From NCBI RefSeq assembly GCF_041248615.1, contig NZ_CP158426.1: a stretch of DNA of 64,000 nucleotides. One strand, written 5' to 3'. How positions within the stretch are numbered: the stretch's first letter is position 1; every line of letters begins with the position of its first letter. Below the pieces are notes generated by a model, which was not told the DNA's origin, did no database searches, and worked only from the letters and a program-made list of their open reading frames with translations. This DNA is from Escherichia coli. GTDB lineage: Bacteria; Pseudomonadota; Gammaproteobacteria; Enterobacterales; Enterobacteriaceae. Positions 59,113 to 60,430 of this stretch are shown one piece after another. Both the position numbers and the translations under genes were made by a program.

Positions 59113-59878
59113 GGTGGTGACTCCAATTAGTAGAACATATATTTTTCGATAAAGGCACCGATGACTTTTTCATGAAGTTCTACAGAGCGCGAGAAACAGA
59201 TAGTTCTGCGGGCCAGACGTTTGATTCGGGTTCTCAGAGGTAGATGTTGCGCTCAATGCGCTGAGTAAAAATCTTACCAGTCAGATGCTTCTCCTTCGGT
59301 AACTCTCTGGTGTAACTACCCCATTCGTCAGTGGTCAACATACCGATGGTAAAAGGGCAAGCAGCGCCAGCAATTCACGACAGGTTTAATCAGTCCGTAG
59401 GCCAAAAGTGTAGGCCAGAACGCCACCAGTTTTCGTGTTGTACGTGTACCAGAGCCAGTGCTGTCGCGCTTTACTGCCGACAAAACTCCATTGCTCATCA
59501 AGTTCGCAGATGAGAGCCATATCAGCATGAGCGACCGGGTATGACGTTATTCTTCGTGGCGAGAGTTTTTTAAAGTCCGGATGACAGTATTAATGCCGAT
59601 TTTCAGCGTACGGGCAGTATCGCGAACTCCGGCACCGTTGAAAGCCATTTCAGTGATTTGCTCTTTAACTCCCGGTTTACGGGCCTCGTAACGGTAAGTG
59701 AGCTGAAGCACTCGATGACAGTCACGGCAGCGAAATCGATCATGTCCTTTGGGTTCTTCCCGTGACGGTAAACCTGAACGGACTGGCAACAGGAGCAATG
59801 AAGGTTAACTGTGACCATGAAAGAACCTTAAAAGTGGCTATTATACCCCTAATTCAACTAATTGGAGTCATGACCGTA
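59113..59878 (-). mobile_element. Degenerate IS1-family element
   Basis: Terminal inverted repeats GGTGGTGACTCCAATTAGTAG and CTAATTGGAGTCATGACC about 765 bp apart; internal InsA-like reading frames. Confidence 0.65.
59547..59818 (-). pseudogene. IS1-family insA, frameshifted
   Basis: N-terminal zinc-finger part (ORF 59603..59818) and C-terminal HTH part (ORF 59547..59798, ...CRDCHRVLQLTYRYEARKPGVKEQITEMAFNGAGVRDTARTLKIGINTVIRTLKNS) lie in different frames. Confidence 0.6.
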
Positions 59879-60054
59879 TTCATAATGGATTAGGTTCAGC
59901 AGTTGCTGAAGTGCTTGTAGAAACTTGTCCTGTGCCCATGCGTCGGGTGGGGGTTAAAGAGCGGTATGGCCAGGTTGAAACTCAGGACTTTTTACAGAGA
60001 GAGTACGGGTTAACCGCGCAAGCTATTGTGGCGGCAGCCAGAGAGCTATTGTAA
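59878..60054 (+). pseudogene. Orphan C-terminal fragment of a transketolase-family gene
   Basis: Open frame ending at a TAA near 60052-60054 reads ...NGLGSAVAEVLVETCPVPMRRVGVKERYGQVETQDFLQREYGLTAQAIVAAARELL, resembling transketolase C-termini; no N-terminal part found left of the IS1-like element. Confidence 0.45.
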
Positions 60055-60316
60055 TTCATGGAGTTTGTTTACCATTCTGTTTTTCTTAAAAGTGAGTGTC
60101 TGTGCGGTCACTAAACTCGGTAATAAAGCAGTTCATTGCAGGATAAGAAGCGTTTGGTTGTGTCGTTTTACCGTAAGAACCGACCGCCGTATGTATCCAT
60201 TAAGCCAGTATTGGTAACGTAGGTGCCCACCTTTTCAAACTGGTGGGCGCCTGTTATGGAGCAAAAACATTATCCGCAGAACCCCGCAGATCATTTTCAA
60301 ATGAGTTAAACTTCAA

Positions 60317-60430
60317 ATGGTTAAACTGGCTTTGCAACCAGGAGCCTCTGTTGCCCGTATTGCCCGGGAACACGATATCAATGATAACCTCCTGTTCAAA
60401 TGGCTCAGACTCTGGCAGAACGTAAGGTAA
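60317..60430 (+). pseudogene. Fragment of an IS3-family transposase OrfA
   Basis: 37-codon frame MVKLALQPGASVARIAREHDINDNLLFKWLRLWQNVR resembling the HTH region of IS2-group OrfA. Confidence 0.4.

Follow-up and report, generated by a model that had tools for sequence, protein, structure and literature searches.

A decayed IS1 element at the scar of a 5,284-bp deletion in a PTS/split-transketolase operon of an Escherichia coli island

The window analyzed here is a 64,000-nucleotide stretch of an Escherichia coli contig (NZ_CP158426.1), the last 25 kb of which is 100% identical to the chromosome of E. coli NRZ14408 (NZ_LT599825.1). In the NRZ14408 record this region is part of a CP4-type island containing a YeeU/CbtA toxin-antitoxin pair, an antirestriction gene and DUF932 and GTPase genes, with the core gene ynjB at one side and a YadA-like adhesin gene toward the other, past which the aerobactin genes are found beyond the limit of the window. 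The contact between island and ynjB lies at about 43502-43720 of the window, between ynjB and a DUF4942 pseudogene. CP4-type islands are usually located at a tRNA gene, and no tRNA gene marking an island attachment site was found in the 64-kb window. A ynjB junction without a tRNA gene is unusual for a CP4-type island and suggests a secondary rearrangement.

Three pseudogenes at the locus are already known and annotated in RefSeq by PGAP, namely an IS1 family transposase ("frameshifted; internal stop"), an incomplete transketolase family protein ("missing N-terminus") and a transposase ("frameshifted; missing C-terminus"). The matches to IS1, to transketolase and to transposase are all far beyond chance, and the features are delimited as follows.

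59113-59875 (−), IS1-family element, full-length at 763 bp but inactive (inverted repeats and Pfam IS1 domains)
59113-59135 (no strand), IS1 terminal inverted repeat at the insB-distal end, GGTGGTGACTCCAATTAGTAGAA
59136-59528 (−), insB' (DDE transposase) remnant (DDE_Tnp_IS1 domain and alignment)
59547-59818 (−), insA remnant (Zn_ribbon_InsA and HTH_Tnp_IS1 domains, alignment and three-frame translation)
59565-59574 (−), retained programmed −1 frameshift motif A6C, TTTAAAAAAC, read from the sequence
59853-59875 (no strand), IS1 terminal inverted repeat at the insA-proximal end, reverse complement GGTCATGACTCCAATTAGTTGAA
59876-60054 (+), orphan 3' end of tktC, comprising 2 nt, 58 codons and the stop codon of a 317-codon gene
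60055-60172 (+), non-coding tail after the tktC stop codon, kept from the intact operon form
60173-60427 (+), left end of an IS66-family, IS682-like element (NCBIfam and DNA alignment)

The IS1 element is bounded by two 23-nucleotide repeats (59113-59135 and 59853-59875) that were 87% complementary in an inverted-repeat search. Its minus-strand ORF pieces matched the Pfam families (PF03811, PF12759 and PF03400) Zn_ribbon_InsA (E 8.8e-9), HTH_Tnp_IS1 (E 1.4e-30) and DDE_Tnp_IS1 (E 1.8e-21 and 7.5e-12), as well as the NCBIfam model transpos_IS1 (E 7.9e-19 and 2.9e-15). These repeats and domains bear out a first-pass annotation of the window that had proposed a degenerate IS1-family element with inverted repeats, with the correction that the element ends at 59875 and not at 59878. 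Canonical IS1 is 768 bp in length, and a role of the poly-A tract in IS1 has been described (PMC12428005). The window copy has the overall organization of IS1H-type members of the family, with a comparable length (~768 bp in the family), ~23-nucleotide repeats, InsA and InsB' domains and the A6C motif, but it differs from them in being 763 bp long, in its identity of 92%, in three private lesions and in the alteration of both of its repeats. Across 5,426 complete E. coli genomes, even its nearest relatives reach an identity of only about 92%; some of them are annotated as IS1H family, and the IS1H-family relatives retrieved for comparison are themselves frameshifted. Canonical IS1A is far more distant from the window element than the IS1H-like copies are.

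Lesions in the element were mapped by alignment and three-frame translation. A private 1-bp deletion separates the two pieces of insA, a zinc-ribbon ORF (59603-59818) and a helix-turn-helix ORF (59547-59798), while insB' carries a private GAA-to-TAA nonsense codon together with a private 1-bp deletion near its 3' end. These are the three private lesions that break the transposase reading frames, and a further apparent frameshift in insB' relative to IS1A is common to the IS1H-like relatives. Both ends of the element are altered as well. By alignment, the insB-distal repeat differs from that of IS1H-like relatives (GGTGATG...) within the terminal 7 bp, and the insA-proximal repeat is changed at positions 4 and 8, so that the two tips read GGTCATGA and GGTGGTG where relatives have GGTGATG. 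No 8-9 bp target-site duplication surrounds the element, which is expected after a deletion or a recombination and is not evidence against its membership in the IS1 family. Judged from these sequence features, the window IS1 is a complete-length fossil that is immobile now, rather than a truncated remnant.

Immediately next to the IS1 end, the codons at 59878-60051 translate to IHNGLGSAVAEVLVETCPVPMRRVGVKERYGQVETQDFLQREYGLTAQAIVAAARELL. In the split transketolase PDB 6yaj, this peptide aligns with the C-terminal chain (341 residues) at residues 282-335 (E 2.3e-10), and it covers positions 75-124 of the 124 positions in Pfam Transketolase_C with a score below the gathering threshold (E 0.0068). 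The first-pass annotation had read 59878-60054 as the last ~55 codons of a transketolase-like gene. Its coordinates stand and the fragment does align to transketolase C-termini; by contrast, the count is 58 codons plus the stop codon, and the parent is not a single-chain transketolase but the C-terminal subunit of a split one. Compared with the last 58 codons of an intact 317-amino-acid E. coli gene, the fragment differs at 3 of 177 nucleotides. Two of the three substitutions are non-synonymous, leaving 56 of 58 residues identical, and one of them replaces Gly with Glu in QVGTQDF, at a position where the intact E. coli gene and most relatives in the databases have a conserved Gly.

The closest known systems are the split transketolases of Salmonella enterica and of Carboxydothermus hydrogenoformans (PDB 6yaj/6yak), and it is the extreme C-terminus of the C-terminal chain of the latter that the fragment matches. 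In Salmonella the locus is chromosomal, with a LacI-type regulator gene on one side and the pta-ackA region on the other, and the genes follow the order LacI-type regulator, PTS EIIA, EIIB, EIIC-GAT, Transketolase_N and Transketolase_C; this arrangement of a split transketolase with an ascorbate-family PTS equals the gene order of the intact E. coli island form described below. The fragment is 88% identical in protein sequence to the Salmonella "transketolase C-terminal section", most of the DNA differences are at third codon positions, and homology ends at the stop codon. Third-position divergence combined with homology ending at the stop codon argues that the island copy is a diverged relative and not a recent Salmonella import. 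A tblastn search of plasmids found no intact donor closer than Salmonella (88%).

Unlike these split transketolases, the fragment keeps only 58 of 317 codons, so that no function should be possible. It is homologous to the C-termini of the family, while lacking the combination of Transket_pyr and Transketolase_C within ~310-340 amino acids and an adjacent gene for a Transketolase_N subunit. On this comparison the fragment derives from a member of the split-transketolase family without being a functional member itself. A protein database search with the 58-amino-acid fragment returned only short proteins. A conserved mini-gene shared across genera was considered and rejected, the short matches being pieces of full-length genes frameshifted in error-rich long-read assemblies (in both contexts examined), proteins cut at contig ends, and pseudogenes.

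Downstream of the non-coding tail lies the third pseudogene, which had been taken for an IS3-family OrfA fragment at 60317-60430. An ORF with the Pfam domain HTH_Tnp_1 (PF01527, E 1.5e-9) is indeed present at these positions. The helix-turn-helix domain HTH_Tnp_1 is common to IS3 OrfA and IS66 TnpA, and NCBIfam scored the ORF as IS66 TnpA (IS66_access_TnpA, E 8.3e-16) against E 4.2e-4 for transpos_IS3, a margin of 12 orders of magnitude in favor of IS66. Upstream of the ORF, positions 60178-60238 match the left terminal repeat of annotated IS66-family elements, IS682 among them, at a site immediately before tnpA. IS3 identity was therefore ruled out by the NCBIfam scores and by the upstream DNA being an IS682 end; the family is IS66 (IS682-like), and the fragment really starts at 60173.

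The IS66 fragment consists of a terminal repeat from GTAAG, with a 4-bp deletion, followed by about 57 of the 141 codons of tnpA, which has its ATG at 60247 and is interrupted by two frameshifting 1-bp deletions. It is identical to the IS682 left end at 237 of 252 positions (94%), homology stops at 60427, and its repeat begins with GTAAG as in the IS682 copies compared. The GTAA(G) terminal repeat followed by tnpA and the alignment with two annotated IS66-family elements place it in the family, with tnpB, tnpC (the DDE transposase) and the right terminal repeat all absent. Whereas IS682 is roughly 2.5 kb in length with a tnpA-tnpB-tnpC organization, only about 255 bp are left here, carrying the 4-bp deletion in the repeat and the two frameshifts in tnpA, with the rest of tnpA missing.

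An undeleted counterpart of the locus was found in E. coli STLEFF_47, in which an intact six-gene operon occupies the same island position in the order LacI-type regulator, PTS IIA, IIB and IIC (ascorbate type), tktN and tktC (317 amino acids). Pfam confirmed all six products, with tktC possessing both of its domains and the gene for the N-subunit adjacent to it. The operon is preceded by a ProQ/FinO pseudogene and followed by the IS66 fragment and then a YadA-like gene; further downstream STLEFF_47 has a gene whose annotation reads maltose/glucose-specific PTS IIC subunit. CFT073 c3405-c3410 (PAI-metV) was considered as a match for this PTS/transketolase operon and rejected, the paper giving a PTS of maltose/glucose type with transketolase unmentioned.

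By pairwise BLAST, window positions 59876-61339 correspond to positions 6001-7491 of the STLEFF_47 segment with 96% identity, and positions 58397-59112 correspond to its positions 1-716 with 99.7% identity. Within the former match, the non-coding tail of tktC belongs to a 367-bp stretch collinear with segment positions 6001-6367, in which 4 positions differ. Given that the flanks are collinear up to position 716 and from position 6001, the IS1 element replaces exactly positions 717-6000 of the segment, or 5,284 bp. This interval held the regulator, all three PTS genes, tktN, and tktC as far as codon 259 (its first 775 bp). Each IS1 end meets the neighboring DNA flush, the junctions contain neither an 8-9 bp duplication nor microhomology, and the 9-mers flanking the element differ (acaaacgaa on the left and gtattcata on the right). 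Thus the endpoints of the deletion, the content lost, the lack of a target-site duplication and the decayed state of the IS1 element are direct observations. That the island had undergone an IS-mediated deletion, as first proposed from the window, was substantiated by this segment, found elsewhere at 96-99.7% identity with the operon intact. The same proposal had counted the downstream transposase fragment in the deletion record. However, the IS66 fragment is present in the deleted form and in the intact form (STLEFF_47), and therefore predates the deletion and had no part in it.

A ProQ/FinO-family pseudogene, frameshifted, occupies 58216-58724 (−), leaving about 390 bp between it and the left end of the IS1 element. 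It is frameshifted in the intact-operon form too, indicating that its decay is independent of the IS1 event.

The two forms were then counted in 5,426 complete E. coli genomes, scoring the deleted form when at least 80% of 58900-60700 was present and the intact form when at least 80% of the 7.5-kb STLEFF_47 arrangement was present. The deleted form occurred in 290 genomes and the intact form in 132. The presence of the IS1-tktC junction in 290 independent complete assemblies excludes an assembly artefact in practice. At an identity of at least 99%, the IS1 variant was found in 290 records, the same number as the deleted form; this equality suggests that the variant is confined to the locus, which points to a single event. 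Isolates with the deleted form came from poultry, swine, cattle, dogs and humans. At least one genome, that of a chicken isolate (NZ_CP033635.1), possesses both the deleted and the intact form at two chromosomal sites (about 2.638 Mb and 5.174-5.179 Mb).

We consider the locus to be, more likely than not, the scar of an IS1-mediated adjacent deletion within an island that E. coli acquired horizontally. In its ancestral state the island would have contained the ProQ/FinO pseudogene, a LacI-type regulator, the PTS components EIIA, EIIB and EIIC (ascorbate/galactitol type), tktN and tktC, with a pre-existing IS66 end fragment and the YadA-like adhesin gene after the operon. An IS1 element would have inserted at one edge of the present gap, and one of its ends would then have attacked a nearby target by intramolecular replicative transposition, so that the DNA between IS1 and the target was lost and the IS1 element kept. 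Such an event would have removed the 5,284 bp and left the IS1 end directly abutting codon 260 of tktC, the element being flanked by no duplication. Frameshifts, the nonsense codon and changed terminal bases would have accumulated in the IS1 element later and rendered it immobile, and the tktC remnant would have been left as non-functional pseudogene DNA.

Replicative transposition of IS1 and the replicative (adjacent) deletions that it makes are known (PMC12428005, citing Turlan and Chandler 1995). An IS1 element flush at a deletion endpoint without target duplication is a feature shared with classical IS1 deletions, and a single retained IS with flush junctions and no duplication is the expected product of an adjacent deletion, which therefore fits. 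This explanation assumes that the IS1 element, now dead, was active at the time of the event or that transposase was supplied in trans. We infer, rather than observe, the side on which IS1 first inserted and the assignment of the deletion to transposition instead of recombination. Two synthetic junction queries detected no insertion-only intermediate in the 5,426 complete genomes, and the order of events is accordingly unreadable from them.

Adjacent deletion is not a unique reading of the junction, given that recombination between direct IS1 copies leaves an identical product. If one copy had resided in the AT-rich spacer preceding the gene for the LacI-type regulator and another inside tktC, homologous (RecA-dependent) recombination between them could have excised the 5.3 kb and left one hybrid IS1 with flush junctions and different flanking 9-mers, as observed, and IS1 is a multi-copy element in most E. 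coli (median of 2 places per genome, up to 44). However, this route requires a rare variant to have inserted twice, independently, within 5 kb, and the variant, with a number of records equal to the count of the deletion locus, gives no sign of having multiplied; single-insertion junctions occurred in no genome searched. Because there is no sign of a second copy and no surviving intermediate, we rate recombination below adjacent deletion, as a possible but rather unlikely origin of the scar.

It is doubtful, though conceivable, that loss of the PTS/split-transketolase operon was selected and not neutral. The excess of the deleted over the intact form (about 290 versus 132), its range of hosts and its presence beside an intact copy in at least one genome could mean that a costly or counter-selected sugar pathway was removed.

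We also considered whether the tktC remnant persists because it yields a small expressed protein or acts as a regulatory element, via read-through or a promoter directed outward from the IS1 end. A 47-codon ORF with a GTG start (59911-60054) and a weak promoter-like site within the IS1 end (59817-59844, +) would be compatible with expression, as would one public assembly with a predicted 85-amino-acid product running from the IS1 end into the fragment. Yet the region contained 3 promoter-like sites against 4.3 expected in shuffled sequence, the ORF starting in IS1 (59762-59893) and the tktC fragment are in different reading frames, and the non-synonymous changes described above include one at a Gly conserved in most relatives. 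We know of no independent function for the last third of the Transketolase_C domain, and consider a retained function of the remnant very improbable. Scans of 58000-61500 for promoters and terminators gave nothing above threshold, and an Rfam scan of the same interval gave nothing near the threshold of any family.

Finally, the reverse order of events, in which the window represents the ancestral state and the PTS/transketolase operon replaced an older IS1, would agree with the deleted form being the commoner one in complete genomes (290 versus 132), but it is effectively refuted by the completeness of tktC in the operon form: the window tktC frame starts mid-domain, exactly at the IS1 end, in the operon form the same 177 bp close a complete 317-codon gene that has both transketolase domains, Salmonella relatives have the same operon order, and no mechanism is known to us that replaces an IS1 precisely while completing a gene in frame.

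We regard the locus as a case of ordinary island decay that calls for no new mechanism. It documents how an E. coli island of wide distribution lost its carbohydrate-uptake/transketolase operon in an apparently single-origin deletion, probably by IS1, and this deletion could serve as a presence/absence marker for tracing the island. The analysis also corrects the family label of the downstream transposase fragment from IS3 to IS66.

Other parts of the island provided further observations. On the ynjB side of the ProQ/FinO pseudogene, an IS3-family element (52435-53663, +) whose programmed frameshift is intact adjoins a truncated hypothetical gene, and about 1.6 kb without an annotated gene follows (53895-55483). 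Downstream of the IS66 fragment, 826 bp (60428-61253) of island-specific, mostly unannotated DNA extend to the YadA-like gene, and 772 bp of this (60428-61199) had matches in only 371 of the 5,426 genomes. This DNA contains two hairpins, a strong terminator-like one at 60516-60541 (−) that no gene precedes and another at 60801-60822 (+). Some strains (NZ_AP042554.1 and NZ_CP019361.1) have further IS insertions downstream of the IS66 fragment, among them an IS600 at about window position 60700 in OkiPb01692, suggesting that the locus keeps gathering IS elements. In strain 2013C-4991 the matching DNA ends about 85 bp into the YadA-like gene and a sul2/floR resistance region comes next. The YadA-like trimeric autotransporter gene itself (61254-62801, +) contains internal near-identical repeats; its product is 515 amino acids long in the window versus 419 in E. 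coli STLEFF_47, indicating that the repeat number varies among strains.
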